Shown here one piece after another: positions 2-19,198 of a stretch of 19,198 nt of DNA. The notes beneath the pieces were generated by a model that was given only the letters and a program-made list of their open reading frames with translations, ran no database searches and had not been told where the DNA came from. Source of the stretch: a virus (taxonomy: Duplodnaviria; Heunggongvirae; Uroviricota; Caudoviricetes). The DNA lies in IMG/VR virus record IMGVR_UViG_3300046506_000279. One strand, 5' to 3'. The position numbers and the translations under genes are program-made. The stretch's first letter is position 1; each line of letters starts with the position of its first letter.

Positions 2-2400
2 GTTGCCGCCCAAGGCCTTGCCGCTGGCGGTGAAGGCGCGCTTGGCGAAGTCGCCGGCCGGGCCGGCCAGTTCGCCCAGGTCGCGCGTGTAGTTCTCCTT
101 TTTGGTCCACAGGCCGCTGCCGGGCACCAGATTGCCCATGCCCATGCGGCCGGCGAAGTCGACCGGCATGCCGGGCAGCGCCGACAGGCCGTGGGTGATG
201 AAGTCGGCGCCGCCGTCGCCCAGCACGCCGGCCAGGAATTCCTGTTTCTTGCGCCGGCTCGAGAAGTTGTAGCCGAGCCGCTGCAGCACGCCGTCGATCG
301 CGTCTTCCAAGTCTTGCTCGAACGGCAGGCCGTCGGCGCCGCCCAGCATGAACAGCACCGCCAGCATGTACAGCACGGCGCGCTGGCCGGCTTTCCGTTC
401 GGGCGAGCCGGGGCGGCCGGCAAAGGCCATCTGGCTCAGCAGTTCGAGCCAGTTCACGGAATATTGCTTGAACGTCAGAAGGAGCCCGCCCACCGGGTTG
501 CGCGCCCAGCGCGGCTTGTTGCCGGCGTTATACACGAACTGGGTGCGGTTCACCGCCTCGGTGGCGAACGCGGTCGGGTTCGGCAAGCCTTCCTCGCGCG
601 CGGTGCGGTAGGCGGCGATGAAGGTGATCTTGCGGTTGGCCAGCTCGGCCAGCGCAAACAACTTGCCCCAGCCCAGTTTGACCTTGGCCAGGGTGTTGTG
701 GGCGGCGGCGCGCGCATCGCCCACCCTGGTGCCGTCGCCGGCCAGCAAGGTGCCCTTGCCGGCGCCCTGGGCCTGCAGGAAGTGGATTTCCTGCGGCGCC
801 ACCACGGCGGCCGCGTCTTTCAGCGCTTGCGCGAGGTCGGGGTCGGCGATGTCTTTCTTGGCGGCGTCGATGGTGGCCTGCTTGATGCGGGCGAAGGCTT
901 TTTTCACCCCGCCGTACTGGGACAGGTAAGGCAGGGTGATCGCGATCGGCTGGGTCGCATTCACCATGGCCGAGGCGACCGAGCCGCCGAGGAACTGGGC
1001 GAACATCAGGCCCGACAGGAAGGTGCCGCCGCTCTGCGGGTCGCGGATGTGCTGGCGCAGTTTCACCGCCTCGTCGGCCAGCTGGCCCTGCTGCTGGGGG
1101 ATGGCCTCCACCGCCTCGTCGATCTGGCCGCTGTGCAGGTTGCTGGCGGTCAGGCGCGCGTTGCTGTAGATGAAGCTGGCCAGCACCCGGCCCGGGTCTT
1201 CCGAGAAGCCGGCCGTGCCCTTGCGGTGGATCATGCGTTTCAGCGCGCTGCGGTTGGCCTTGGTCAGGCGCAGATAGTCCTGGTAGGCGGCGTCGCTGGC
1301 GTTGGCGTCGGCCCCCAGGCCCAGCATGGTGCCGAACAGTTCCACGGTTTCCGGGGAAATGCCGGCGAACAGCTTGTACTTTTCTTCCGATACCGTGCCC
1401 TGGCGCACCGTGGCGTGTTGGTGGTCGGCCTGCATCTTGCGCGCCATCTTGGCGGCGTCCTCGCTGTCCTCGAACATGCCGAAGTACACCTGCTGCTGGT
1501 TCTCGGTCACGTACACCGTGTATTTGCCGAAGCGCATCAGGGGCGCGTAGCCGCGGTCGATCAAGGCCTGGCCCTTGTCGGCCAGGTTGCCGATCTGCTG
1601 GGCGGTGGCCAGGTGCTGGGCCGCCAGCGCCGGGTCTTGCTGGGCCAATGCCTCGTAGTGGTGGCGCAGCAGCAGCGCGGCGCTGGCCAGGTCGGGCGCG
1701 GCGGTGGCCTGTTGCGTCAGCGCGCCGCGCGCGTCCTTGCCGCCCATCTTCAGCATTTCGGAAATGGTCAGGTTGCCCACGCTCTGGGCGATGGCGGCGC
1801 GAAATTCGCGGTACAGGCCGATCTGGCCCGGGTCCAGCTGGAACAGGGCGCGCAGCTCGGCGTCGCTCCACACCACGCCCGGCTGCAGCACGTTGTGCTC
1901 GTACAGGCGGTTGATGGTCTCGGCGTACACCGGCGCGGCCTGCATCCAGGTGTCGAATTCGGCCTGGTCGATGGCGCCGCGCAGCAGCAGCGCGGCGGCC
2001 TTGTCGGCGGCGCGCATGGTGGCCGCGTCGGCCTCGAGCTCGCTCACCTTGACCGGGCGCCCGCTCTCGTCGCGCGCCCACAGCAGGGTGCCTTCGAAGA
2101 TCGGCGCGGCGATGGCCTTGGTGTCGGCTGCCGATACCGCCTGCTTGCGGTTGGCGCCGGCGATGTCGCGCAGGTGTTCCAGCTGCGGCAGCAGGCGCGG
2201 CGCCCGCTCGGCGGCGGCCACGGCCACGCGCGACACCTCGCCCAGGAAGGACTGCACGGCGCGGTACACGGCGTTGAAGGCCGGGTGGCGCCGCGCCAGG
2301 TTGTCCATGGTGCCGATGGTCTTGTGCCACCACGATACCTTGCCGGTGCGGTCGAGGAAGTCGCCGACCTGGTAGCCGGCGGCCAGTTCCACCTGCTTGG
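2..2400 (-). other. PLxRFG-family C-terminal helical region (in giant CDS)
   Basis: Motifs GKVSWWHKTIGTM, IFEGTLLWARD, RGYAPLMRFGKYTVYV, KRMIHRKGTAGFSED, NPVGGLLLTFKQYS and GGADGLPF, recognised as typical of PLxRFG proteins. Hydrophobic segments LMFAQFLGGSVASAMV and AVLYMLAVLFMLGG. Confidence 0.85.
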
Positions 2401-5400
2401 CGTTGTTGTAGGCGTTGGACAGGACGGTGCCGAGGTCTTGGCGCAGGTTGCCCATCAGGTCGCTTGCGCCGGGCTCGCCCGGCGGGCGTGTGACCGCCTC
2501 CTGGGCCACGCCACCACCACCGCCACCTGGCTTGCCGTTGACAATCTTGATCTGGTCGGGGCGGAACACGGCGTAGGTGATCTGGCTATGGCTGCCGCCG
2601 CGCGGCTCCTTCATCTTCAGGCCGTCGTAGCCGGCGTCCACCAGTGCCGTCTGGAAGTCGCCCTGGTCGTAGCGGAACAAATGCCATGCGGCGATGTCCT
2701 GGAACCATGGGGTCAGGTCGAATTGCTTGATCACCCGTGCCGGCAGCGTCACGCCATGGTCGGCAAAGAACTGTTTCCATCCGGCCGGGTTGCGATACGC
2801 CTTGTGCGACAGGTCGAGCGGGTGCGCCAGCGCCAGGTAGGCGGTGGTGTACTTGATGTCGCGCGCGGTCTTGGCCTCATCCCCCGGCGCGATCATGCCG
2901 ACATAGTGTTCCTGCTTGTGGAAGCGCTTGATCCACTCCTTGCTTTCGGCGAAGTAGAAATACGGGTGGGTGCCGCCATTGCCTTTGTACTCGAACTGGG
3001 TGATCGCGTCCCGGCCGCCGTGGTAGACCGGCAGCGGCGCGCCGGTGGCCGGGTCGACCACCGTCGAGGCGCCGAACCAGTCCTTGAATGCTTGGGTGTT
3101 GGTCTCCATGGGCGCCATGTTAACCTCCGGCCCCCGCTGTGCAGCACGGCTGCTGTTGACGCCCAGCAGGCTCGGGTTGGCCGGATCGAAATTACCGTTG
3201 TTGCCGGTGGCGCTCTTGATCTGCCCGGCGTCGAAGGCGATGTAGACGTCGCTGTCGATCGGGCCGTAGCTGCCGTCTTCGCGCGTCAGCTGCTCGCGCC
3301 AGTTGCGCACCAGCATGCCGTCATGGCCGGCCTGCCTGGCGCTGCGCATCGCCTCGGCCAGCGATTGGCCGTGCGGGGCGGCGGCGTCGTAGCGGGCCGG
3401 GTTGCTGATGTGCAGGTACACCGGCAGCACGTTGCCGCCGTTCAGCGCGCCGTGCTGGCCGGCATACACGCCGGCAAACTCGGGGTTGGCGGCGAAGAAG
3501 AAATCGCCTGCGGTCGGCGTGAAGCCGAGCCGGTGCAGCATGTGCTGCAGCGGCGTGCGGGTGCGACCCTTGTCGTCGCGGAAGGCGCTCACGTCGTGCA
3601 TGGTGCCGTGGTACACCACGCGCGGCGTGCCGTCCGGGTTGACCACCTTCGATAGCCCGGCCGCGTTTGCTTGCAGCAGGAACTGGCGCGTCATATCATT
3701 CAAGGTGGGTGCTGTCGGCAAGGTGTTCCGGATAGGGCCGGGAGCGCTGTTCCCGCCCTGCGGACCCGTTGAATTCGTTGAATAACCGGCAGCATCCGCC
3801 CCTTGGGCCGGGCCTGCTTGTGGCGCAGCGCGGGGCGTCCTATCATTCAATGGCGGTGCCGCAGGTGCGGGATTCCCGTTAGGGTCGGTTGTTTGGCCCT
3901 CTGGACCCGACTGTGATGAAAGCCTGTCGGCATCCGCCACCGGCATCAAGTCCATCAACTCATGGTCGTAGAACAGGCGGCCATTGGCGTCCTCGCGCAC
4001 GCCGGCGGTCACGATGAAGTCGTTGCCGGCGATCCGTACCTTGGCGGCGAATGCCAGCATGCGCTGGGCCGCGTTCTTGACGTTGGTGGCGTCGGCCACC
4101 AGCACCCCATGCTCGAGCAGGGCCGGCAAGGCCGCCAGTGCGCGGATCTTGTCGATGCCACCGCCGTGCTGCAGGGTTTCCTTGATGCCGTGCGCGCGCA
4201 CTTCGATGGCCTGGCCGGTGGCCTGGTTGGTGTAGCCGCCCACCAGCTGCGCCTGGCCCCAGGCGCGCGCTTGCTTGCGCATCGCCTGCAGCGCGGCGTG
4301 CTCGTTGCTGCGGTTGGCGCTGATTTCATCGCCCTGCAGGGTCGCGACCGGGGCGCCTTGGGTCAGCCGGGTCGCCTGCGCGGCCTGCTGCCAGTCGCCG
4401 AACCAGCGCTTGAAGGCGTGGGTGGCGATCTGCGTCAGGTTGCCGTGCAGGCTTGCATCGGTGCTGCTGCTGCCGTTGTTCTCGGCCATCAGGTCGCGCC
4501 CCACGGCCAGCACTTGGCTCAGCAGATCGTGCTGGGCCTTCCCCATCCCGAGCACGGCGCGCACGATGTCCACAAACCGGTCCCACAGGCTGCGCGGGCC
4601 GCTCTGCACTTGCTGCAGGGCGTGCTGGAAGGCGGGGTTGGCGTGGGCCTCGGCCACGAATTCGTCGAGGTTGCGCATGCCGTAGTGGCTGGCCAGTTGC
4701 CCGCTGCGCTTGGCGTCGGCGTACAGGGCTTTCATCTGCATGGCCGCTTTTCCACCTTTGCGCAGGGCGCTGGCGGTGGCGGCGTGGACGAATTCGTGCA
4801 GCAGGTTGGTGGCGGCGCCGTTGGCTTCGAACAGCACCACATGGTTGCTGGTGGGTGCATAGCCGGCGCCGTGGCCTTGGGCCGGCATGCCGGTGGCAAA
4901 AGTGTAGTCGGCGGCATTGCCGGTGCCCACCGTCGGGTTCACCTGGTTGGCCAGCAGCTGTTCGGCCAGGGCGCGCTGGAACGGGGTGGCGCTGGTGGCG
5001 GCGATCTGGTGCAGCAGGTCGGTGGCGCTCGCGCCGCTGTCGATCGCGTGGTACAGGGTCTGGTCGGTGGCGCTGGCGGTGCTGGTCGCGGCCTGGTTGA
5101 ACAGCGGCAGGCCGGCGGTGGCCTTGGTGCGCAGGGTGTCGGTCAGGGTGAAGCCGGGCTGGTCCAGCGTGGCCGTGTCCGGTGCCGCCATCCAGGCGTC
5201 GAAGTTGGCGTATTCGGTCGGGCGTCCCTTGGGTTGGGCGATACCAACCGCTTCGACCTTGCCGCCGCCAAGTTTCTTGAGCACGGCGTTGACGTTCTGC
5301 GGCACGATCTGGTCGTAGAAGGCTTTCATGCCGTCGCCGCCCACTTTCAGGCCGTCGCCTGACAACTCGCCGGTCGGCTGCGCCATGATCTTTTCGGCCA

Positions 5401-8400
5401 GTTCCTTGCCGATCACGTCGTCGAGTGATTTGCCGGCCACATCGCCCAGCGGGCCGCTGCCGCGCAGCACTTCGCCAGTCGCGTTGTCGACATACAGGGT
5501 TTGGGCGCCCTGCGCAGTCAACTCGATCCGGACGCGGGTCGTATCCTTGGCGGCGGCGGCAATGTCCCATTCAATCGCGTTGACGGATTTCGACAGGTCG
5601 TAACGCTCGGCGCTTTGCTGGCCGTTGACGAACGCCACCTTGTCGTAGCCGTGGGCGGCGGCGTAGGTGATCACGCGCTTGATCGCCAGTTGCAGCCAGC
5701 CTTCGGTGCTGGTCACGAACGGGGCCGGCACCAGGCCTTGGCTGGCGCGCTGGGTATGGCGTTCGCTCAGGTCGCGGAAGCGGTTGATGGCGTCACGTTG
5801 GTCGGCGGTGTCGACTTCCCAGCGGTCCTGCCAGTCGCCATGGCTGCGCACCGCGGCCATGGCCTGGCCTAGGCTATCGAAGCCCAGCAGGTCGTTGGCC
5901 TCAAGCGCGGCGCGGGCGGCGCTGCCGGCGGCTTCCAGTTCGGCCTGGTGGTTGACGCCGCTGGCGTCGAAGCCCAGTTTCTTGCCCTGCTGTGCCCAGT
6001 CGGACTGCATTTCCTCGATGAACAGCACGCGGTGGCCGTCGGCGTCCACGCGGTCGTTCATGCGGATGTGGGCGACGATGTTCGGTTCGGCCCAGTGGCC
6101 CGACTGGTAATTGGCGGTGTGCTTGCCCGTCGCCTTGGCGATGTCGTCGCTGTCCAGTTCCATGGCGTCGATCATGGCCAGCAGGTCGGCGCGGCTGGCA
6201 CCGTCGGTGTCGGCGTCGTCATCGTTGCGCTCGACCAGCGTGCGCAGCTGGGCGTCGCTCAGCCCCTGCACGGTCGCGGGGCCGTCCATCGGCAGGGTCA
6301 GCAGCAGTTCGCGGTAGTGCGCGCCGCCGGGCAGGGTGTAGCGGCCGTACTTGGTGGCGCCGTCATTCCCTTCCTGCGCGCCATAGGCGTCGACCTCGCG
6401 CAGCGCGGCGATGATCTCGGCCCGGCCCTGGTCGTCGAACGGTTCATCGCCGGTGATCCGCTCATATTCCGTGCGCAACTGGGCGTCGGTCATCGCCTCG
6501 TAATTGACCGGCGGCGTACCTTTTTCCACTTCCTGCACCCGCACCCCGTTCTGGTCGAGGTAGGCGGCCAGGTCATCGCGGGTCAGCTTGTCCTTGGCGC
6601 GCAGGGCCAGGTAGTCGAGGATCCCGCTCCAGTCCAGTTCGTCTTTCTTGATGCCCAGCTTGGCGGCGTTGGCGCTCAGCCAGCTGGCCCACTGGTCGGC
6701 CGGCATGGTCGCTTGCTTGGCGCTGCCGATCTGGCGCGCCAGTTCGGAGTAGTAGCCGGGGGCGGCGCGCAGGTTGCCCATCAGGGTGCCGGCATTGGCT
6801 GCCAAGGCGTCCTTGATCCGCGCGAAGTCGAGCATGTGCAGATCGCTATTGCTGAGCACGAAGGCGTTGCCGTCGCGCGCGAACGGCACGCCGGCCTGTT
6901 GCAGCCGTTCATACAGGCGCGTGCTGTCGTCGGACAAGGTGCTTTCGCTGCGGAATGACGCCTCCGGGAAGCGGGCGGCGAATTCATCCAGACCGGTCAG
7001 GAACAGCGCCGTGGCGATTCCCTTGCCACGCGGTCGCGCATCGTCGTCGCCGCGCACTACCTCCATGTCGTTGGTGATCTCGTCATCGACATGGGCGAAG
7101 CCCACGCTGATTTGGGTGGTGCCGTCGCGCCAGATGTACTGCGCTGCGTCGTGCCCGCGTTCCTGTTTGGTGAAGCCTGCGCGCAGGTTGCCCATCAGGG
7201 GCTCGCTGTCGCTGGCGTCTTCTGCCGTGCTCAGGTTGGTGATGGTGCCTTCGTGCGAATACACCTGGCGGGTGTTGCCGTCATCTTGGCGCAGCGTGAT
7301 GCGCAGGTTCCCGGCCTGCATGGTGTCGATCTGTTCGACCGTGCCCTCGATCGCAGCGCGGCCGGTGTCGGTCGGTGCGAAGCGGATGCGCTCGTCCACG
7401 GCCACCGGCGGTGGGGTGGGTTCGGCGGCGGTGGCGACGGTCGGCACCAGCCCGTCCAGAATCTCCTGGGCGGCGCGCACCGCGTTGTCGGTCAGTTGCC
7501 GCTGCCAAGCGCCGGTCGAGGGCGCCCATTTGAAGCCGGCGCTTTTCAGTTGCGCGCGGATTTCGGCGGCGGGCTTGCCGTCGAAGAATACCTGCAGGCG
7601 GTTGAGGGCGGCATTGCGCACCAGGCGCGGGCCGGTGGCTTCCACCGCGTCGCCGTTTTCCTTGGCGGCGCTGATGGCGGCCTGGGCGTCGGCGTCGTCG
7701 GCGTGGGCCTCGGCATCGGCGATGCGGCGGGTGATTTCCTCGACCCGGTCGCGCAGGCGGCGGATTTCGGCGTTGTTGTTTTGCAACTGGTAGGCGGGGA
7801 TGCCGGTGCGGCCGGCGAAGTCGGGCTTTTTCAGTGCGGCGATCTGGTCCGGCTGGTAGCCCAGCGCGGCCAGTTGCGCGTCGTCGTCCTTGCGCAGGGC
7901 GGCGTTGGTGGCCTTGTACAGTTCCTGGGTCTGCTCGCGGCCGGCCAGCTTGGCCTGGGCGTTCTTCAGTTCGGAGGCGAGCGACTGGTCGACGGCGCCG
8001 CGCAATACCCGGGTCAGGCGCTTGGCGGCCTTGTCCAGGTATTCGTTCGCTTCTTCGGCGCGGCGGTCGGCGCTCTCGCCTTTCTTGCGGTTCGATTCCA
8101 CCGGGAAGCGGGCCGGGCCGGTGATCATGCTGCTCATCACGCGGCTATGGGCGGCCAGGTAGCTGTTGGTCAGGGCCGCGTAGTGGGCGGCGGCGCTGTT
8201 GAATTCGGCCACGAAGTCGGCCTGGCGGTCTGCGGGGGCGGCGTGGTAGGCGCGCTCGAAGCGCTGCCACAATGCCATCACGTCGCGGAAGTAGCTGCGC
8301 CGCACCGAGGCGCCGCGCGCTTCCGGGCTGTGCGAGGTGCCGGCAAAGGCGCGCACGGCGGCGCCCAGCGGGATCGCACTTTCCGAAATATGCACCGGCA

Positions 8401-11400
8401 GGCTGGCGGCATAGTCGTGCATGCCGCTGTACTGGCCGTCATGGATGGCTTCGGCCAGCGGGTCGCGCAGCATGCTGCCGCGCGATTGGTCGTGCTCGTT
8501 CCAGCGCTTGCCGGTCTGTTCCTGCACGGCCGCCAGCGCGGCATCGCGCACATCCTCGTACTTGGCGAAGGGCTGGGCCTTGGCGATGGTGCGCACGATG
8601 GCGATAGGGTCGGTGGTGGCGGTTGGCTCCTGCTTCGAACGGGCGGCCACAACCGGTTTCAGGCTCGGGTAGTCCTCCAGCACGGCATCCGGTACCGGCT
8701 TGCCTTCGGCGGCGGCCATGGTGACGGCCGCTTCGTGGTGGCTGGCGGCCTGGGCGTCGAGGCGGTCAAAGTCCTTGGCGCCGCGCAGGGTCGCCAGCGG
8801 GGTCGGTTTCACGCCCAGTTGCGGGAAGTCGCGGCCGGCGCGCACGGCGTCGAGGTAGGCGGCGCGTGTCAGTTCCCAGGGTTCCTGCTCGGGCGTGGTG
8901 CCTTCCAATTCTGCTGAATTCGACGGAATAGTGGCCGCATCTTCCTTGGCCACATAGCCCTCGCGGCGCAGGTAGTCGATACCGGCGCTGGTGGCGGCTT
9001 TCTTGGCGTCGCGCAGGCCGTCGTAGCGTTCGCCGTCGTCGCCTACCTGCCACTTGCCGTTGCCAATCTTCTGCACGTTGGCAATGGTGATGCTGCCGCT
9101 GCCGTCCTGGCCGTCCTCGCTGAACATCAGGCGGTGGGTGGTCACGCCGTCGCGCTGGCCAAGGTCGCGCCAGGTCATGTGCTGCTGGGCTTGGGCGGGG
9201 GTGAGGGTGTCGGCGGCTTCGGTGGTAGCAGCGGCCGGCGCTTCGTCCTGCTGGTACTCGGCGCGCACTTCTTCCGGCACATCATCGCCGCGCGTGATCG
9301 CCTCGTTGACCAGCCGTTCGTGCTGGCCGTAGGCGTGCGAATACACGTCGTCTGCAGCCTTGGCCGGCACATTGCCGCCGCGCTTGCTGATGTAGGCGCC
9401 GGCTTGCGCTTTCGCATAGTCGTCGCGGGTCAGTTGCCACGGCTCGCGGGCATCGTTGGCGGCCGGCTGCGCCTTGATCGCTTCAGTGGCGTCCTTCAGC
9501 TGGTAAGCCTTGGTGGCGGCGTCGTGCAGCAGGTCGGCCAGCTCGAGCGGGTCGCTGGCTTCATTCATCGCCGCTTTCAGGGCGGCGTGCTGCTCGGGGG
9601 TGACGTAGCCTTCGGTGCTCAGCTGATCGAGCTCGCTCGAAGCGTCCCGGGCTTCGTCCAGCGCGGCCTTGTTCATGGCGCGGGCGGTGTCGGCCCAGCG
9701 TTCGTCGGCGCGCTTGGCGACCAGCAGCTGTTCGAAGCTGCCTTCCGTGTTGCGTTCGGCGTCCACGCGGGCGGCGTCGGCCAACAGGCGGCGCGCCACT
9801 TCGTGGTGGAACGGCGCCATGTCCTGCTTGCTCATGCCGCGGTAGGCGGCAAACGCTGGGTCGTTGTAGACCGCGTCTTCGATCGCGCGGCGGGCGCTGT
9901 CGGCGCGCTGGTAGTCGCCGTAGGCGCGGCGCTGTTCGGCTTCAGCCTGGTCGCGCGCGTAGTAGGCTTGCAGTTCGGCGTCGGATTCGGTCCAGACTTG
10001 GCGCTCGCCATCCCAGAAGCCGGGGCGGGAAGCCAGGAAGGCGGCCGGTACGCCGGTGTCTTTCGCCTTGGCGGCCACGTCTTCCGGGGATGGGTAGGCC
10101 GGGTCGAGGCGGCGCATTTCGGCCGCTTCGGGCTCGCTCAGGCCGTGGTCGCGCAGCTTGGCGCGCAGGGCGTCGAAGCGGGCGGTGTTTTGGGCGGCAG
10201 TTGGCTTGGCCGGGGCGGCGGCCGGCGTTGCTGCTGCCTGCTGCTCCACCATGCCGATCAGGTCGCTCATGCTCTTGACGTCGCGTACTACCGGGTGGGT
10301 GCCGCGGTAGTTGCCAGTGTCGGTCAGGTACCAGCCGTTCATGCCGCTGCGCACCTGCCACGGCTTGCCGTCCAGTTTGACGATATTCCCGTCTTCATAG
10401 GGGTTGGCGAAGTTGACCTTGAACGGGGCGCGCTGGGGGCCGGTCATGGGCTGCGGTTCGCTGGCGGCAGGCGTGGTGGTGCCTTGCTCGGCTTCCAAAC
10501 TGGCCATCGGCGCGCTCTGGGTGGTGCCGTTGTCGTACTTCACCATCGCCACATGGATCAGCGGGCCGCTGCCGATCATGCCCTCGATCACGCCGGTGTG
10601 GCCGGTTTTCGTGTTCTTGACGCGGTCGCCCACGTCGTGCGGCGCGTAGCCTTGCGTCAAGACACCGGCACGGTAATGCTTTTCCCGCATCGGCTTGAAG
10701 CCGTCGGGGATGGCCGGCGGTTCTGCGGCCTGCGGTGCGGCTTGCGGTGCCGCCTGCTCTGCGGTGTCGATGATCTGCTGCAGGGTATCGCGCAACGCCT
10801 TGGCGCGGCCCGCTTCGCTGATGCTGGGCTTGCGGTGGTTGACGGCGCGCTGGTCCCACAGGTGGTCGATGTCGCGTACCAGCATGTCGCCGATGTTGCG
10901 CGGCAGGCTGCTGCCGTGGATCAGGTCGACCAGGCCCATGCCGCGCTGGCGCAGGGCGTCGGCGTCGGCGCGGGTGTCCAGCGCTTCTTTGTCCTGGATG
11001 TCGTGCAGCAGGATGGCGGCGGTGCGGCCCACCAGGGTGCGCTCGAGGGGCTTGGGTTCGGCGGCCGGGGCGGGTGCCGGTGCGGCCGGCTTGGCCGGTG
11101 CCTTGGTCTTGGCCTCGTCGGCGTACCAGTTCTTCAGCCAGGCGATCGCAGCGTCGAACGGGATGCCGGGCGCCGAGCGCGCGCCGCCGCTGGCGGCAAC
11201 CCGGTAGGTATCCTTGGCGCGGTCGTACCAGTACAACTCGGTCCCGGTGTTGCTGCCGGGCGAATGAATGATCAGGGGGTTGCCGCTCTTGAGGGTGTCG
11301 TTGGTGCCGCGCACGGTGAAGCCGGCGGCCTCCAGCTTGCCCACCGGCGTATCGGCCCGTGCGGCACGCTCGGCCGCTTCCTGTTCGTCCAGTGCGCGGC

Positions 11401-14400
11401 GCTTGTCGGCGGCCCGGCGCGCGCTGATGTCGGCCTGGTCGGCAAAGGCCTGGTCCGATTGCTCGGCGGCGGCCAGCCATGCGGTCTCCAGCGCGGCCTC
11501 GTCGGGTGCGGTGGCGGCCATCTTGTGGATGGCGTTGGCGAGCGTGTCTTTGCTGGCCGTGTCGAGCTTGCTGCGGGCCACGTTGATGGCGGCAGCCGCG
11601 CTGGTGGCGCCGCCGTTGCCGATCGCCAGCCCGCTCTGGTGCTCGATGACCAGCCACGGGTTTTTCTTGGCGCCGTGGCGGCGGCCCACGTAGGCGCGCA
11701 CGCCGTGCGGCAGGTCGGTCACGTCGCGCACGTCGGTGTACAGGTTGGGGGTGCCGTCCTTGTCGTTCTGGGTGAAGCGGAACGGCTTGCCGATTTGCTG
11801 GGCCAGCGCGTGTGCGGCCACCTGCTCGCCCTGTTCGAGCATGTCGTGGATCGCGGTTTCCGGGCTGGTACCCAGCCGGATCGTGCTCTTTTGCGGGCGC
11901 GGGCGGCCCTTGAAGCCTTCGGTGGCCATGACCTGGTCGCGGAAGCGGGTCAGGTTGTCCTTGTTGTTGGCGACCGTGAATTTGCCATCGCCGGGCACGT
12001 CGAAGGTGATGAAGTGGGCGGCTTTGCGGGCGGCCATGGCACGCTGCTCGGCGGCCCTGACCTTGGCGCGGGCAGCGTCGCGCTGGCTGGGGCTGCTGGC
12101 CTTGTTCACCGCTTCGCGCGCGTCCTCGAGCGCCCGTGCGGCCGCGTGCAGCTCGGTGTCCTCGGCGTTGGTGGTGGTGTCGGCACCGGCGGTCAGGATC
12201 GCGGCGTTGATCTTCTGGATCAGGTCGGCGCGCGCTTCCTCGTTGTTCATGATCGTGTGGTCGGCCGCCTTCTTCAGCGAAGCGGTGATCACGGTGGGGG
12301 TGGCGGGTTCGGTGTGGCCGGCCTCGATGTGCTCGGCCGCCAGGGCCGGCTGCGGCGCGGCCGGGACTGCCTGCTCGGCCTTGGTAGTCTGGCCAGGCGT
12401 GCCAAAGTGCTCGCGCACCAGATCCTGGTCTGCCAGCGCCTGCAGCCCGGCCTCGACATCATCCGGGTGCTCGGCCTTGATGGTGGCGCGCATGGCTTCC
12501 ACGCTTTGTTTGTTGCCGGCCAGCTCCATCGCGGCGTACATGGCGCGCACCTGGTCGTCGGAAAGGGCGTCCACCTTGGCGTCGTTGATCTTCCCGCGCG
12601 CCTCGAGGGCGGCGTAGGCGGGGCTGCCTTCGAGGTGGACCGGGCTGTCGGCCGGCGCGGCGGGGGCCACTTCTGGCACTGGCCGGGCTTCCTCGATCAG
12701 GCCATACGAGCGCATCGCGTCGACCACTTCCACCGGGCGCAGGAAGTCCATGCGGCCGTTGGCCTTGCGCGCGGCGATGGCCTTGGCGGCGTCGATGATG
12801 CCGTCGGTGGTGGTCTTGCTGATGCCCAGGTCGGTCAGGCCGGCGCGGATCTTGGCCAGCTGCTTGCGGTAGTCGCTGTCGGAATACAGCTTCCCGAACG
12901 GCACCGCTTTGCTGACCAGCGCGCTGATGGTGCCGGCAGGGTACTGCTTGGCGGCAGTGCCCGGCTTTTTGAAAAGCTCCGCCGCTTTCTTGCTGTCGCT
13001 GCCGTTCGGCTGGCGCGCCTTGGGCGCTTCCACCTGCGGCGCGGTCTGGCGGCCCGGCGGCTTACCGGCAGCCAGCGTCCCGTAATCGTTGGGCATCACG
13101 GCAAAGCCGGCCCCGCTCTCGGCGCGCACCACCAGGCGGCCATTGTCGGAAATCGACTCGACAGTGCCATTGGCGTGGTTGCCGTTTTGGTTCGAATAGA
13201 TACCGCTGGCGAAATGCACCTGGTCGCCGACCTTGAACGGCGCTTGCGGCGGCGTGGCTGGTGCCGGCACTTCTGCGGCGGCCTCGGCTTTCTTCCAACG
13301 GCCGTCCCATTTCATGCTCGACGTTTCACGCAGGCGACCGTTGCTGGATACCGTCATTTGGCCGTCGATCTTGACGTGCGGTGCGCCGCCGCGCTGGACG
13401 ATCGTGCCGGTATAGGTCGCGCCGCCAAGGAACGCGGACGGCACGAACGTCTGCACCTTGTCGCCGATCGCCAGGCCAGCCTCTTTCATCTTGGCCAGCA
13501 GTGCCGCGTCGGTGCCGGCTTTTTCGGCCTTGTAAATCTCTTGCAGCGTCGGGTAGACGCTCTTGTATTCGTCGGTGGCGTGGTACTTCTGCAGCGGCAT
13601 GTTCAGCTGCTTGGCGCGCGCGCTGACCCAGTCCATGGCGTCGGCGTAGGTTTCAAACGATGGTGCGGCCTGCGATGCGGCGCCGATGCCAAGGCGCTCG
13701 TTGAGCGTGCCGGGGCGGTGCTCGGTGCTGGTGATGCCGCTTACGCCGAACGCATCGAAGGCGCTGCGCGAGTCGACCTCATTCGCCACTTCGCGGGCGC
13801 GGGCCACCATCGCCTCGGCTTGTTCCTTGGTGTCGAACGGGCCAGCTAGGCGTGCCACGCGGCTATCGCGCAGCATGGTGACGTAAAACTTCTGCTCGCC
13901 CTCGGGTGCCGGCACTTCTGCGGCCGGTGCCGGGGGTGGGGCGTCTACAGCCGCTGGTTCTTCTGCCGCAATGGGTGGCTTCCCGACAAGCGCCTCGATG
14001 TGCGTCTGTCCGTTGCGCTTGGCCACCTGGAGTCGATGCCAACCGTCGATGATCGTAACGCGGCCATCGCTTTGCAGTTCGTAGATTGGGCGCGATACGG
14101 TTTCGGCATCGCGGATGGCTTTCAGGCGCTCATCAAGCTGTTCGGGCTCGGGCGCTTCATCCTGGGCAATGATGCTACCGACCGGCACCCGCGCGATGCG
14201 CCAATCCCAGTCTTGGGCCTCGTCAGCCTCCAGCATGTAGATGGCGTCGTCGCTTGCCGCGAACGGGTCGGTTTTGCTGCCTTCGGCAAACCACGAAGGC
14301 ACTTCGCCCGCCCGTTGCCCAGCCTGCAGCCCGCGCCGCGCGATTTCGTCGGCAATCGGCTTGGCGCGCTTGGGCAGTTCTTGCTGGGCGCGCAGCAGCT

Positions 14401-17400
14401 GGGCGTCGGTCATGGCCTTGATCGACAGGCGGTTTAGCTGCTGGGTGGTCAGGTCGTGCTCGGTCAGCGCTTCCGGGTCGACCGTTTCGGCGTCCTGCGC
14501 GCGGCGCTCCAGTTCGCTCAGCTCGCGGCCCGGTTCGGCGCGCTGGTCGTCGCGCACGATGCGCGGGCGCGGGCGGCCATCGGCCATGTCCGACTGCATG
14601 ATGTGGTGCAGGGCGTCGTTGCGCGGGCGGTTCTCGGTAATCAGCGCGCGCAGGCGGTTGGCGTCGGCCGACACGTTGCCGTCGTAGCCGGATGCCAGGA
14701 TCGCGTCCAGCCGCGGCTGCAGGCGTTCGTCGGAGGCGGCGCCCAGGATATGCACGCCGTGGATGTTGTCGCCGTACTGGCGCAGCAGGTCGGTCAGTTC
14801 GGCGTCGGACACGCCTTCCACCGCCGACGGGATGCCGATGATCGGCGCGATGTCGCCGGCCGGGTCCAGGCCCAGGTGGCGCATCATCTGCTCATACGCG
14901 GCGGTCAGGCTCAAGGGGCCGCCCTGCAGCGGCACGATCGCCTGCAGGCCGAAGCCGTTGATCTGCTCGGCGTACTTTTCCACCAGGGCCAGCGAGGCGG
15001 TCTGGTCGGTCACGACGTCGGGCATGACCAGGAACATGCGCCCCATCGCCATGCCGGCGCTGGCCTTGCTCAGTTCGCGCTCGATCTCCTCGTAGCGGTC
15101 AAACAGCGCGTCCGGGTCCAGTTGCGCGGGGGCGGCCGCTTCTCTCTGTTCCTTCTCCGCCGCTTCCGCTTCGCGCTGGTTGCGGCCGTGGATGGTGTAG
15201 GCGCCGGAATCGACGAACAGGTAGGTGCCCTCGGTGTCGGCCAGTTGTTGGGCGATCTTGGGGGTCGAGACTTTCGACAGTTCCAGCACCGAAATGCCGA
15301 CGTTTTTACCGTTGGCAAACATGCGGGTGAAGTCGCCCGGTGCCGACATGCCTGACAGGAAGCGCAGCGGCTGCTCCGGGGTGCCGTACACGCCCGGCTT
15401 GAATTCGCCGTCGATGTCGACCGGGTTGCCGGCGTTGGCGACGGTGGCGGCCAGGCGGCGCTGGGCTTCGAGCTCGGCGGCCGGGTGCGACTCTGGGATC
15501 ACCAGTTCGTGCGCGACGTTGTTGGTCTTGGCCTGCGCGTCCAGCGCGCGCAGGTACTCGCCCAGCTGGCCGCGCTGGACCCCGATGAAGCCCTCGGTGC
15601 CGCTCGGCTCGATGCCGGGCGCGACGAAGCCGGCCTTCTGCAACTGCTGCACGTAGGCGGCGGCCACCTCGCGGTAATCGCTGGGGGCGGCGATGAACAC
15701 GCTGCTGAAGTTCTTGTGGGCGAAGTCGGCCAGGTCCACGCCCTCGGCCAGCAGCGCGGCGCGGCGCTCGGGCGTCATCGCCTGTTCGTAGTTCTCGATC
15801 GGCTTGTCGGCATGGATCAGGCCATGCTTGGCCGAAATCACGTACACGTCGGGCCGCGCGCGCGGGTCTTCCGGCATCCATTTGCGCAGCATTTCAAACA
15901 TGCTGCCCTGGTACAGGTCGGCCGCCTTGTGGATGCCGGCCAGCTTGCGGTCGGAACAGGCGATCAGCAGCAGCGGGCGGGCGTCGGTGGGGTCGTAGGC
16001 GTGGATCTGCTGCTGGGTGGCGGCGGGCGCCACGGCGCTGGCGGCGCGCGCGGCGCGGCGCGCCTCGATCTCCCTGGCCACCGGTTCGGCGCGCTTGGGC
16101 AGTTCGCGCTGGGCGCGCTGCAATTGCGCGTCGGTCATGGCCTTGATCGACAGGCGGTTTAGCTCTTGCGTGGTCAGTTCGCGCGCGCGCTCGGGCAGGG
16201 CGCCGATGGCAGCATCGCTGGCGCGGTCTGCCGCGTCGGCTTGGGACAGGGCGGTGCGCGCTTCCTCGGCCGAACCGTAGTCTTTGCCGGCGCGTTCGTC
16301 GCGCCATACGACGGCGTGCTGGCGGTTCAGGGTCGGGGTGGCGGTGCGCGCGCCGACGGTAACGGGTTCCTTGGCGGCCAGCAGGGTGTCGCGCTGGCGT
16401 TTGCCGTCCAGCCAACCGGCTTCCCATGCTTCGCGCTCGGCTTTCTTGCGCACGTCCGACGGCGGGTGCATCGCATAGCCGTCCAGGGCGGCAGTCTGCC
16501 CGCGCTTTACCAGCGCCGGGTCGTGGTTGGTCTGGGCCTGGCTGCCGGCTGCATCGCGCGTCGGTTCTCCTGTTGGTGCAGGCGTTCCATTCTCGGCAGG
16601 CGGGGTGGGCGCAGCCGGGGCGGTCGTTTCGAGCGGGTGGACGTAGGCCAGCACCTGCTCGGCGCTCAGGGCGGCAACGGCATCCTCGCTGTCGGTGCCG
16701 TCGTGGTAGTCGGCAATGGCGTGGTAGGCGGCCTTCCATTGGCGGGCTGAAATGTCGTTGGCGAACGGGGCCAGTTTCGGGTTGGCGCGCATGCCTTTGC
16801 CGGCGGCGCCCATGGCGGCGGCAAACGAGCGAAAGCCCTTGCGTACCAGCAGTTCAATCACTTTGGACAGGGCCGGCAGCAGGTCGCCAGCGGTGTAGAG
16901 CTGGCCGCGGGCGTTCAGTTTGGCGCCGGACATATCACCCAGCACGTCGCCCAGGTGGCCCCAGGCGTCGGCCAGTTCGGCGTCGAGCGGGTCGGTTTCT
17001 GCGGCGGGCTCGGCCTTTGGCGCAGTGTCCGGCGTAACGGCGGGCGCGCTTGGCGCGGATTTGGCTTCGTTTGGCGCATTCGGCGCGGCGGGCGCGGACT
17101 GCTGGTATGGCGAAGCGAATTCAGGCGCGCTTTTACTTGGCGTCGGCATGTCGTCGTTCATCTTGACGTTCCATGCCAATTTCGCATCAGCTACCGGGAT
17201 GCCCAATTTGGCGGCGGCAGCTTTGAAGTCGTCGGTGCCGGGGCGCATCAGGCTGGCACTGTGCGGCATTGCAAAGGCGACGGCGTCGCCCAGTTTGCTC
17301 CATGCGCTGCGGCGGGCGCCCGGCGTTTCCGTGGGGGCTGCCGCTGCGTCCGGGGCCGTGTCCTTCGGCATGCCGAAAATCTTGTTGCCGCGGCCGATCG

Positions 17401-19198
17401 CGCCGGCTTGCTGCAGGGCGTCCTTGATCTGCTGCGGGGTGGCGTGGTCCGGTACCGTGACGTCGGCGCCGGTGTTGAAGTCCTGGGCGGCGTACTTGCC
17501 GATGTGGACCACGCCGTTCTGGACGGTGATCGGTTCGGCGCTGTTGGGCAGCTTGCCGAGCGACAGCGTGGCGGGGGCGGCGGGCAGTTCGGGCAGCGGG
17601 AAGCCGGCGCCTTGCCACTTCGCCAGCTGGCCTTCGGTCGGCGCGGTCGGCATGCCTTCGTCGGCCAGGTTGTTGCTGCCGTCCAGCTTGTAGTAGTTGG
17701 CGATCAGGCTCAGCGGGTCGCCGGCCAGCATGCGGCCGCGCTTGATCGTTACCAGGTGGATCGCCGACAGGCTCTTGCCGGTGCTGGTGACTTTCTTCTG
17801 GTTGGCCAGGAAATGCTGGGTCACGCCGTTGTGCTCGACCGTGATCGGGTGCCACGATCCCAGCGTCGCGTGCGGCAGTGCCTCGAATGCGGCGCGGATC
17901 TTTTGCGCGGCCGTCGCCGGGCTGGCGGCGGCTGGTGCCACTTCTGCCGCTTTGTCGGCGGTCTGGGTCGCGCCATCGGCCACTTCGGCACTGGGGAATT
18001 CGTGCGCCAGCGGGATCAGGTCGCGGATCGGGGCAGCGAAGCGGATCACCCGGATCGGGTCGTTGTCTTCCAGCCTGGCCAGCCACTGGTGGTGGCCGTC
18101 GAGGACGTGGTTGTCGCTCGAGACCAGGATGGCGCGGTCGCCGCCTTCATGGGCCTTGGCCTGTTCGACCTTGGCGTGGGAAAATTCCTGCTGGGTCGGG
18201 TGCAGGGTGCTGGGCAGCACTTCTTCCTGCTGGTGCGGGACGCCGCGCGCGGCCAGGAAGTTGACCAGGGCGCCGCGGTGCTCGGCTTTAACCTGCGGCA
18301 TGTCGGCGCGCGGGATGGCCAAGGTGCCGGAATCGGGGGCGAAGGCGGTCCAGTCGCGGTCGATCTGGTGGCCGGCCAGCTCGGTGACGGGGTCGGCGGC
18401 GGTTGGGGCGGCGGCCGGCTGCGCGCGGATACCCGGGATCTTGCGCGGGACTTGCAGGTTCCCGGCGAAGGTATCGCTGAACTTCGACGTGGGCGTTTCA
18501 AGCAGCAGGGTGAACGTCCCATCGCCATTGTCGGTGACTTGTACCACCCGGGCCGGCCTGCCTTGTGGCGTGATCCAGTCGCCTGCCTTGAGTTGCGCAA
18601 CGGTGGTTTTTTCGGTGCCGATGAAGCTCACGCCAAGCGGCAGGCCGAAGGCGTTGCGTTCCACCTTCTCGGCGGCCGGTGCGTCTTCGGCTAGTGCCGG
18701 CTGGGCGTCAGCGGCCGTACTTGCAGCAGATACATCAGGTCCAGCGCCTGGTGCAGGTGCGGCGGGAACGGCTGCTCGGTTTTCGCCAGCTGCTTGATCA
18801 GCTTGGCGTCGGCCTTGCTCACCAGCTTGGACTGGCGCAGCAGGCGCAGCGCTTCCCAGGCCGTCATTTCGTTGTCCAGCATCAGCGGCATGTCCTGCAT
18901 GGGCGGCTCCGGTGGCGGTGGGGGGGGCTTTGCGGCCGTTCTTGACGAAGGCCTTGAAGGCGGTCATCAGCGGTTCGCGCTGGCCGGCCGGTACCTTGGC
19001 CTTGTTCAGTTCTTTCCAGAAGTCGGTGCCGTTTTTCGAGCGCTGGGCGGCGGCCAGCAGCTCGGGCGGCAGGGCGGGGGCGGGCGCGGCGGCTGTGGGC
19101 GCGGCGGCCTTGCGCTCGGGTACCGCGTCGACCAGTTCGTTGGGGGCGGCAAACACCGGTTCGTTGAAGGCCTGCGCGGCGGCGCCGTGGCGCTCGAC
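2..19198 (-). CDS. Giant PLxRFG-domain polyvalent protein (>=6,399 aa, partial at both ends); probable phage/MGE internal-virion or ejected anti-defence protein
   Basis: Manual translation of the minus frame whose codons start at positions =1 mod 3 shows no stop from 19198 (VERHGAAAQAFNEP...) to 2 (...FAKRAFTASGKALGGN). Third codon positions are mostly G/C. Contains YAPLMRFGKY (PLMRFG at 1526-1543) and a long series of motifs typical of polyvalent proteins. Confidence 0.96.
2540..3105 (-). other. ADP-ribosyltransferase domain 2 (ART-PolyVal-like)
   Basis: AFKDWFGASTVVDPATGAPLPVYHGG (YHGG 3014-3025), YFYFAES, AYLALAHPLD, AGYDGL, YAVFRPDQIK. Confidence 0.8.
3160..3655 (-). other. ADP-ribosyltransferase domain 1 core (ART-PolyVal-like); its N-terminal FKRWFGDW motif lies at 4391-4414
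   Basis: SKVVNPDGTPRVVYHGT (YHGT 3602-3613), DFFFAANPEFAGVYA, GNVLPVYLHISNP, AGHDGMLVRN, VYIAFDAGQIKSATGNNGNFDPANP. Confidence 0.88.
3671..3699 (+). promoter_or_regulatory. Putative antisense sigma70-like promoter P-A
   Basis: TTGCAG (3671-3676), 17-nt spacer, TATCAT (3694-3699; 5/6 match to TATAAT). Lies directly upstream of hairpin RNA A. Confidence 0.55.
3704..3800 (+). ncRNA. Putative structured antisense RNA A (~97 nt)
   Basis: GGTGGGTGCTGTCGG (3704-3718) pairs with CCGGCAGCATCCGCC (3786-3800) as an uninterrupted 15-bp stem with 3 G-U pairs. G-U pairs favour the + strand. Internal hairpin AGGGC...GCCCT at 3734-3759. Paralogous to RNA B. Confidence 0.55.
3818..3846 (+). promoter_or_regulatory. 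Putative antisense sigma70-like promoter P-B
   Basis: TTGTGG (3818-3823), 17-nt spacer, TATCAT (3841-3846). Same geometry as P-A, 147 nt downstream. Confidence 0.55.
3852..3938 (+). ncRNA. Putative structured antisense RNA B (~87 nt)
   Basis: GGCGGTGCCGCAGG (3852-3865) pairs with CCTGTCGGCATCCGCC (3923-3938): 14 bp with two single-nt bulges. Internal hairpin AGGGTCGG-TTGT-TTGGCCCT at 3881-3900, at the same offset from the -10 box as in RNA A. Confidence 0.55.
3955..4290 (-). other. LPD3/PBECR-like (barnase/RelE-type nuclease-fold) domain inserted in ART domain 1
   Basis: YTNQATGQAIEVRAHGIKETLQH...ALAALPALLEHG...FAAKVRIAGNDFIVTAGVREDANGRLFYDHEL, a pattern I recognise from LPD3-type domains. 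Confidence 0.65.
4540..5060 (-). other. Zincin-like metallopeptidase (MPTase) domain
   Basis: LLHEFVHAAT (HExxH, 4784-4798), YGMRNLDEFVAEAHANPAFQ (third-ligand Glu motif, 4646-4666), SLWDRFVDIVRAVLG. Confidence 0.88.
5100..6760 (-). other. Conserved uncharacterised phage virion-protein domain ('EEMQSDW' domain)
   Basis: YYSELARQI, GIKKDELDWSG, TKYGRYTLPGGAHYRELLLTLP, SGHWAEPNIVAHIRMNDR, LFIEEMQSDWAQQG (5996-6016), PAPFVTSTEGWLQLAIKR, GYDKVAFVNG, VIGKELAEKI, GGDGMKAFYDQIVP, QPGFTLT...GLPLF. Confidence 0.7.
6790..7175 (-). other. GNAT-family acetyltransferase domain
   Basis: Motif A RGKGIATALF (RGKGIA 7013-7030) and downstream STLSDDSTRLYERL. Confidence 0.72.
7450..8370 (-). other. Plasmid/ICE-type region resembling parts of DUF3560-containing proteins
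   Basis: GTSHSPEARG, HSRVMSSMITGPARFP, PDFAGRTGIPAYQLQNNNAEIRRLRDR, NRLQVFFDGKP...LKSAGFKWAPSTGAWQRQLT. Confidence 0.55.
13982..14210 (-). other. ParB/Srx-like domain 2
   Basis: RPIYELQSDGRVTIIDGWHRLQVAKRNGQTHIEALV (DGWHR 14033-14047). Confidence 0.75.
14335..14452 (-). repeat. Direct repeat copy 2 (C-terminal flank of DUF6884/TGT cassette)
   Basis: Encodes LTTQQLNRLSIKAMTDAQLLRAQQELPKRAKPIADEI. 37-nt exact identity (14403-14439) with 16128-16164. Confidence 0.92.
14600..15370 (-). other. tRNA-guanine transglycosylase (TGT)/DpdA-like TIM-barrel domain
   Basis: Ordered TGT-type motifs: FVDSGAY (15197-15217), MPDVV (15011-15025), IVPLQG (14921-14938), GVHILG (14741-14758), VSADAN (SAD 14663-14671). 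Confidence 0.72.
15542..15979 (-). other. DUF6884-like (YaaA-related) domain
   Basis: LLLIACSDRK...AADLYQGSMF...VYVISAKHGLI...IENYEQAMT...FIAAPSDY...GFIGVQRGQLGEYL. Confidence 0.75.
16060..16177 (-). repeat. Direct repeat copy 1 (N-terminal flank of DUF6884/TGT cassette)
   Basis: Encodes LTTQELNRLSIKAMTDAQLQRAQRELPKRAEPVAREI. 37-nt exact identity with 14403-14439. Confidence 0.92.
16397..16519 (-). other. Rmf/CrpP-like Trp-Gly motif
   Basis: LVKRGQTAALDGYAMHPPSDVRKKAEREAWEAGWLDGKR resembles the Rmf pattern RGxxAxxxG-xn-P-xn-RxxWxxGW. Confidence 0.45.
17995..18345 (-). other. ParB/Srx-like domain 1
   Basis: IPRADMPQVKAEHRGALVNFL...LHPTQQEFSHAKV...DRAILVSSDNHVLDGHHQWLA (DGHHQW 18083-18100). 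Confidence 0.8.
18691..18900 (-). CDS. Nested overprinted 69-aa hypothetical protein (MQDMPLMLDNEM...LTPSRH) in a different frame inside the giant CDS
   Basis: 63/69 codons end in G/C, versus about 23/70 in the host frame over the same interval. GGAG Shine-Dalgarno (18907-18910) lies 6 nt before the ATG, and the ORF ends in TAG. The host frame here becomes a low-complexity A/G/Q/P linker. Confidence 0.7.
   Translation of the reverse strand: MQDMPLMLDNEMTAWEALRLLRQSKLVSKADAKLIKQLAKTEQPFPPHLHQALDLMYLLQVRPLTPSRH

Follow-up and report, generated by a model that had tools for sequence, protein, structure and literature searches.

Can DNA that encodes part of a giant phage protein also carry genes for small RNAs on its opposite strand? 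The question is raised by a 19,198-nucleotide stretch (the window) of IMG/VR virus record IMGVR_UViG_3300046506_000279, a virus of the class Caudoviricetes. An earlier reading made from the letters alone, which we call the sequence-only reading, had pointed to two antisense sigma-70-like promoters, each placed just ahead of a hairpin. They lie on the plus strand opposite the protein tail that links an LPD3 domain to the first of two ART-PolyVal domains (Table 1). The two units are probably real: they appear to be tandem copies of a conserved, uncatalogued antisense small-RNA gene that lies in the LPD3 tail. Judging from sequence comparison, we put the probability of a promoter-driven antisense small RNA at about 0.6.

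RESULTS

The two units in the window are duplicates

Both hexamer pairs, with their 17-nt spacers, were found exactly where the sequence-only reading had placed them, and the hairpins that it saw downstream of both are real and long-stemmed, as judged by folding and z-scores. The plus strand from 3703 to 3802 folds at -55 kcal/mol (z = -4.7, versus only -1.3 for the sense strand), and that from 3850 to 3940 at -45.8 kcal/mol (z = -3.65). Since the plus strand of the giant gene, which is G+T-rich, folds better than the minus strand along its whole length (on average -42 kcal/mol per 100 nt, against -35), hairpins spotted there by eye require a composition-matched control. In a composition-corrected ranking of the window loci, hairpin B stands second and hairpin A about 16th.

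It had also been argued that two independent occurrences of this geometry are unlikely by chance. This argument fails because the units are copies of one in-frame tandem duplication. Units A and B are offset by 147 nt (49 codons) and share about 60% identity, and every indel between them is a multiple of three. When the promoter scan was loosened to 8 of 12 consensus matches, sites A and B were the sole matches in 19.2 kb on both strands, and TATCAT occurs in the window at these two places only. The whole 94.6-kb contig holds 27 sites of 8/12 quality, and two in the window are no excess over this. What exceeds chance comes from conservation in relatives, and not from the presence of two copies in the window.

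Relatives carry the unit in the LPD3 tail

We found relatives through a word-based search and one exhaustive HMMER search for LPD3 proteins with the same tail. The first of them, L006, is a metagenome-assembled genome (MAG) of the Methylococcaceae with a guanine-plus-cytosine (GC) content of 45% and a single unit. Together with twelve further LPD3 loci it gave a comparison set of 13 others (39 to 66% GC), or 15 copies of the unit when A and B are included. Each of the 13 relatives has one unit, and among these loci only the window phage has the duplication.

Several members of the subfamily are solo LPD3 proteins that end directly after the tail. Four of these (P0061, P0062, P0063, and P0067, encoded at L185, L186, L187, and L189) have 169 to 238 residues and stop a few codons past the tail motif. 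In the solo genes, the unit overlaps the 3' end of the gene, covering its last ~30 codons. Since solo LPD3 proteins carry the unit, the element belongs to the LPD3 tail and not to the junction between LPD3 and ART. The sequence-only reading had called for a survey of the motif behind LPD3/PBECR domains in homologues; the motif does recur behind LPD3, but it is not tied to an LPD3/ART or PBECR junction.

Synonymous codons are conserved in the tail

Synonymous sites are constrained in the tail. Third-position identity to L006 is 0.25 overall, and 0.25 even where residues are 100% identical, but it rises to 0.75 in the tail, where nucleotide identity to L006 also peaks, at 0.81. The GC content at third codon positions (GC3) is 0.48 to 0.59 in the tail, compared to 0.87 for the giant gene frame, and the three codon phases are equal in GC, as in non-coding DNA. 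By codon usage, only one other 50-codon stretch of the 7,375-codon frame is more atypical than the tail.

The codons themselves recur from lineage to lineage. Nearly all lineages encode Leu-Ser-Ser by CTT TCA TCA, Asn-Asp by AAT GAT, and Gln by CAA, and they do so in genes whose GC3 ranges from 0.29 to 0.87. In the giant gene, the relative frequencies of these codons are 0.029 for CTT, 0.031 for each TCA, 0.11 for AAT, 0.13 for GAT, and 0.22 for CAA. From each gene's own usage, the joint probability of this choice is about 9e-8 in the window gene and 4.5e-7 in L188, the other high-GC gene. The 12-nt loop read from the opposite strand of the Leu-Ser-Ser-Gln codons is nearly invariant in 13 of the 15 copies. 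By these measures, the unit is a conserved nucleic-acid element under synonymous-site selection.

Two candidates for a hidden protein gene were tried and rejected. An overprinted gene at the tail would have to use other frames, which close within 61 codons and have no third-position signal. The AUG in the loop, taken as a start codon, would lead into frames that vary from 7 to 135 codons, and two lineages have lost it.

A covarying stem forms on the antisense strand

Two stretches, one immediately 5' of the Leu-Ser-Ser codons and the other immediately 5' of the Leu-Asn-Asp codons, pair with each other at every locus. The arms vary in sequence by lineage, and the residues that they encode swap as complementary codons (Ala/Ala versus Val/Thr). 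For a formal test, we aligned the 15 copies by sequence only with MAFFT, derived a 7-bp core with RNAalifold, and compared it with 500 shuffles and with slid controls. In the closing-stem core, 96.2% of cells pair, compared to 79.5 +/- 2.3% in shuffles (0 of 500 as high), and 19 cells carry double-sided changes, compared to 4.9 (again 0 of 500). None of the 500 shuffles reached the covariation score of the stem, and only 30 to 50% of cells paired in the slid controls. These are compensatory changes beyond shuffled and slid controls, as expected of a conserved structured RNA. With position-matched nulls for each locus, the antisense stem has p values of 0.001 to 0.3, which combine to 8e-7 by Fisher's method over nine clades.

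The wobble pairs tell the strand. The core contains 11 pairs that are not Watson-Crick; read on the antisense strand, every one is G.U, with no A.C among them. The structure therefore forms on the plus strand of the window, and not in the mRNA. Indeed, antisense folds are clearly better than sense folds in L006, L131, L182, L184, L185, and copy B. The conserved loop, a purine-rich segment beside the 3' arm, is unpaired in most folds. A covariance model of the family scores copy A at 62 bits (E = 5e-14) and copy B at 35.8 bits. Copy B keeps its promoter-like motif and stem and has lost the loop, and it may be decaying or diverging.

A promoter-like motif travels with the stem

The sequence TTGNNN-N17-[A/T]ATCAT stands upstream of the stem in a fixed register in 12 of the 15 copies, and site A of the window shares its register with 11 relatives. 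The -35 hexamers of the relatives match the consensus at three to five of six positions, and TTG is retained in 12 of 15 copies. In the window, both -35 hexamers match at three positions (TTG only) and both -10 hexamers at five, and both copies have TAnnnT at a spacing of 17 +/- 1 nt. Each TTG in the window is the antisense of a Gln codon, CAA, and each -10 box is complementary to the Asn-Asp codons and to the one base that follows them.

Base choice within the box follows a pattern. The TG of an extended -10 is present in 8 of 8 copies with A at position -12 and absent from 4 of 4 with T there. Three low-GC copies have TATAAT three bases further upstream, with stems that begin three to five bases earlier. 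The stem core opens with an invariant G, 7 nt past the -10 box. The window copies have 3 nt more between box and core, but their stem is extended outwards, and its foot still lies 5 to 6 nt from the box. In copy A, the peptide over the promoter is no longer family-like, yet TTG, spacing, and box persist. The -10 box of site A is the antisense of AAT GAT and of a rare Arg codon, AGG (frequency, 0.017), which gives T at -12, where the usual Arg codon, CGC, would give G.

A promoter scan tool agrees in several relatives. In the L129 gene, the site of the unit is the sole promoter-like call (0.2 expected), and in the 5-kb L132 gene there are two calls, one behind each of two LPD3 domains. The unit behind the first, weaker LPD3 of the 1,654-residue L132 protein and the unit of L015, which belongs to a different LPD3 subfamily, lay outside the training set and are out-of-sample cases. 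The former (L132:2280-2404, minus strand) has TTGACC-N17-TATTGT and then a 10-bp closing stem; the latter (L015, 3838-3941, minus strand) has TTGACA-N17-TATGCT, with a consensus -35, and then a hairpin that folds well only as antisense (z = -2.7, versus -0.8 for the sense strand). The association with an antisense unit may thus hold across LPD3 in general. A U-run stands behind the RNA in L186, L131, and L185 only, and in L186 the tool called a terminator-like hairpin with a U-run at 1062-1076 (minus strand), the predicted 3' end of the RNA.

What emerges from these comparisons is a strand-specific covarying structure with a promoter-like motif, under purifying selection at synonymous sites. 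The proposal that antisense promoters feed hairpin RNAs is partly supported, through the conserved motif, the rare synonymous codons, and the covarying antisense stem, over 13 loci and two out-of-sample tails; it no longer draws on the statistical argument, and copy B looks degenerate.

Reach of the searches

Protein-guided scans for the LPD3-tail-ART arrangement in genome, viral, and metagenome contigs returned mostly relatives with ART only, and LPD3 was present only in L006 and L015. A BLAST search of window positions 3300-4400 against plasmids and phages gave no match. DNA pattern scans of viral contigs gave 1 and 49 matches, all by chance and outside an LPD3 context. The covariance model R1 found no additional copies in 121 ART loci or in the remainder of the phage, and a profile search of 400 genomes of the class of L006 recovered L006 alone. 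Rfam had no match at E <= 1 for the region and 8 relatives, and a resemblance of the loop to a hammerhead or kink-turn, which we had considered, has no support there. A second site in the phage complementary to the conserved loop, as a target in trans, was not found.

The setting: a giant polyvalent-protein gene

The window is an internal part of a gene of 7,371 codons (contig 53564-75679, minus strand), and the units lie about 2,100 codons from its end. By Pfam, its product contains DUF6884, LPD3, and two ART-PolyVal domains. Among the adjoining genes are matches to a terminase, a portal, a major head protein, a DNA methyltransferase, and an internal virion protein. Almost every gene of the contig lies on the minus strand. 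A polyvalent protein combines many unrelated effector domains in one polypeptide borne by phages or conjugative elements (Iyer et al. 2017, PMC5512222). Given these domains in one gene beside virion genes, the giant gene encodes a phage polyvalent protein in that sense.

AlphaFold2 modeled LPD3 with a core of moderate confidence, at a predicted local distance difference test (pLDDT) score of about 70 to 85, and with a disordered tail, which scored below 50. A Foldseek search and a sequence search of the PDB gave no credible match for LPD3. Elsewhere in the giant protein, an HExxH zincin-like motif lies upstream of LPD3 (window positions about 4400-5000, minus strand), and a short Leu-Met-Gly-Asn-Leu-Arg tag is repeated at several domain starts of the translation; these motifs may mark places where the polyvalent protein is processed. 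Codon usage in the frame is most atypical at 18731-18880 (GC3, 0.32), where GC in phase 1 is 0.94, a composition characteristic of DNA that codes in a different frame. Other Ala/Pro-rich linkers with lowered GC3 (0.62 to 0.66) lie at 13844-14179 and 16997-17146.

Table 1. Features in and around the two predicted units (window positions, except where the contig is named)
Feature	Position	Strand	Description
Window	contig 54040-73237		record of 94,661 bp, 68% GC
Giant open reading frame (fragment)	2-19198	-	entire window is one open frame
First ART-PolyVal domain (PF18760)	3188-3634	-	Pfam, E = 1e-30; downstream of LPD3 tail
Repeat unit B (promoter B and RNA body B, predicted)	3660-3806		second copy of tandem duplication
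Promoter-like site B	3671-3699	+	TTGCAG (-35) 3671-3676; 17-nt spacer; TATCAT (-10) 3694-3699
Candidate RNA body B, diverged copy	3704-3811	+	16-bp closing stem 3704-3719/3785-3800; conserved loop lost
Repeat unit A (promoter A and RNA body A, predicted)	3807-3953		in-frame tandem duplication; protein side is disordered Pro/Ala/Gly-rich tail
Promoter-like site A	3818-3846	+	TTGTGG (-35) 3818-3823; 17-nt spacer; TATCAT (-10) 3841-3846
Candidate RNA body A, canonical copy	3851-3949	+	closing stem 3851-3865/3923-3940
Conserved unpaired loop	3911-3922	+	consensus YUGUGAUGAAAG; antisense of Leu-Ser-Ser-Gln codons CTT TCA TCA CA
LPD3 domain core (PF18798)	3968-4291	-	Pfam, residues 4970-5077 of P0001, E = 6e-17

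DISCUSSION

The proposed gene and the case for and against it

We propose that in one LPD3 subfamily, the DNA for the LPD3 tail also carries a small-RNA gene on its opposite strand. The gene would consist of a sigma-70-type promoter, with a -35 TTG, a 17-nt spacer, and a -10 [A/T]ATCAT that often has an extended -10 TG, followed by a predicted start at the foot of a closing stem of 7 to 16 bp. The stem would enclose a variable inner hairpin and the conserved, unpaired loop. The RNA transcribed from these promoters would be about 65 to 100 nt long (~90 nt). In the window phage, the entire unit, with predicted promoter and RNA, was duplicated in tandem and in frame, and copy A keeps all the family hallmarks.

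Several observations weigh against this proposal. At its own threshold, the scan tool calls no promoter-like site in the window, where the -35 is weak (3/6), and an extended -10 is absent in both window copies. The 17-nt spacing is dictated by how far apart the Asn-Asp and Gln residues of a conserved peptide motif lie, and spacing alone is therefore not evidence for a promoter. Among the relatives, a low-GC clade is without the -35 TTG, and the -10 box of L187 no longer has its T at -7. No U-rich terminator that would end a short transcript was found after either window hairpin; the sequence-only reading had been right on this point. Over the whole window, uninterrupted stems of at least 12 bp number 79 on the plus strand and 8 on the minus strand, and the minimum free energy (MFE) z-scores of L129 and L132, each taken alone, are not significant and do not separate from background. 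A tblastn search of plasmid and phage collections with the LPD3 tail gave no match and thus no cultured member there. Finally, it is by analogy with lambda OOP and type I antisense RNAs that the RNA is suggested to act in cis on the LPD3-bearing mRNA, limiting or processing it.

Other readings of the locus

Four other accounts of the unit have to be weighed against a promoter-driven antisense RNA. The hairpin could work as single-stranded DNA (ssDNA) or as another DNA-level signal, in priming, packaging, or recombination, with the boxes as an incidental imprint of the peptide motif. G.T pairs on one strand suit ssDNA equally well as RNA, the window lacks a terminator, and LPD3 is found in elements with single-stranded stages (PMC5512222). 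Set against this is the fact that the synonymous codons specifically retain TTG and the -10 box, and that the compensation between TG and T at -12 and the independent tool calls in L129, L132, and L015 suit a double-stranded promoter. Single-strand initiation sites have promoters embedded in the hairpin, unlike the unit, whose boxes are outside the stem. We consider a DNA-level signal unlikely, and likewise the possibility that the hairpin is a real RNA but lies within a longer antisense transcript begun elsewhere, as a processing, stabilizing, or terminating element. In its support, the window promoters are weak (3/6 plus 5/6), and the hairpins with U-runs in L131 and L186 resemble terminators. 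But minus-strand genes make up nearly the whole contig, and upstream in the window the tool called no stronger plus-strand promoter; moreover, the -35/-10 motif accompanies the hairpin at every locus, even in solo LPD3 genes whose contexts are unrelated.

Could the mRNA of the giant gene instead use the structure, whether to make ribosomes pause between domains, to shift the reading frame, to direct processing, or to attract an RNase? Each of the 11 wobble pairs would then be an A.C mismatch, and in L006, L131, L015, and copy B the sense strand folds no better than background. On the other side, the stem test taken overall is significant for the sense strand as well (Fisher p = 1.3e-5), and in L129, L183, and copy A the sense duplex has a slight edge in stability. 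The CTT TCA TCA codons, rare in the giant gene, could also delay ribosomes of this host, but low-GC relatives use the same codons commonly. A programmed +1 frameshift at CUU U, tried as a specific candidate, has no conserved stop in the new frame. We consider a role in the mRNA improbable. We give the least credence to coincidence, which was already disfavoured, in which a duplicated peptide motif, read from the other strand, yields the boxes, and the hairpins arise by chance in G+T-rich DNA that codes for Ala, Pro, and Gly. It is true that the two units are duplicates, that -10 and TTG are the antisense of Asn-Asp and Gln codons, that stems are frequent on the plus strand, and that most antisense promoters in enterobacteria are not conserved (PMC3419515). 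Coincidence does not account for conservation at synonymous sites across genomes of 39 to 68% GC, for compensatory changes in the stem with residues swapping as complementary codons, or for the strand asymmetry of the wobble pairs.

Comparison with known systems

If the unit is an antisense small-RNA gene, lambda OOP is a natural comparison. This RNA, with its promoter pO and terminator tO, is antisense to the 3' part of cII, with a 52-base overlap (PMC5869508). Similarly, the unit would specify a short phage RNA with its own promoter, opposite a protein gene and, in solo LPD3 genes, overlapping the 3'-terminal codons; the window unit, too, lies opposite and overlaps the coding region of its putative target, and by this analogy it could plausibly down-regulate in cis. 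OOP has a clear terminator, known transcription, and an RNase III-dependent action, whereas the window unit is known from sequence alone and is without a terminator. The window unit also differs in lying far from the end of its giant gene and in traveling with a protein domain across many architectures, and its covarying closing stem and conserved loop would be needless for simple antisense pairing.

The type I toxin-antitoxin loci txpA/RatA and bsrG/SR4 of Bacillus prophages have antisense RNAs that overlap at the 3' end. Like these, the unit would be a convergent, structured antisense RNA over the coding 3' end of its partner, borne by a mobile element. Type I toxins are small membrane peptides, whereas LPD3 is a soluble alpha/beta domain of ~110 residues and not a hydrophobic peptide. 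In the type III system ToxIN, the ToxI repeats precede the toxin gene on its own strand and are cleaved by the toxin, an endoRNase. The likeness of tandem RNA repeats adjoining a conflict-system protein is superficial, since the window RNA would be antisense and inside the gene, and the unit is single-copy in 13 relatives. Overprinted phage genes, such as lambda Rz1 in Rz, offer another parallel. As in Rz1/Rz and in domain-associated structured RNAs that are absent from annotation, one DNA stretch would hold two kinds of information, and the "linker motif" of the protein would be partly an imprint of the second. Unlike Rz1, the second gene would be non-coding and on the other strand; no alternative frame is open, and there is no codon-phase signal of one.

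What the RNA may do

That both loop and stem are conserved suggests a role beyond simple pairing with the opposite transcript, perhaps in binding to a protein, for which LPD3 itself is one candidate. More speculative, and on balance doubtful, is the idea that RNA and LPD3 form a portable two-part module. The RNA would then be a dedicated antidote or regulator, in a toxin-antitoxin-like or ribonucleoprotein arrangement; the "linker motif" of LPD3 would be largely an imprint of the RNA promoter and loop, and the duplication would raise the dose of the RNA. The thought that a NAD-capped RNA might serve as a substrate of the neighboring ART domain was dropped, as the invariant base at the predicted start is G.

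LPD3 is a widespread domain of mobile elements, and polyvalent proteins are usually read purely as strings of protein domains. If our proposal is true, part of what looks like protein conservation in the linker is conservation of a promoter and an RNA. It would place these sites among the rare antisense promoters demonstrably under purifying selection, unlike most of those in enterobacteria (PMC3419515). Giant virion-protein genes could then conceal regulatory RNA genes that gene callers and Rfam miss, and the RNA would offer an experimental handle on the role of LPD3.

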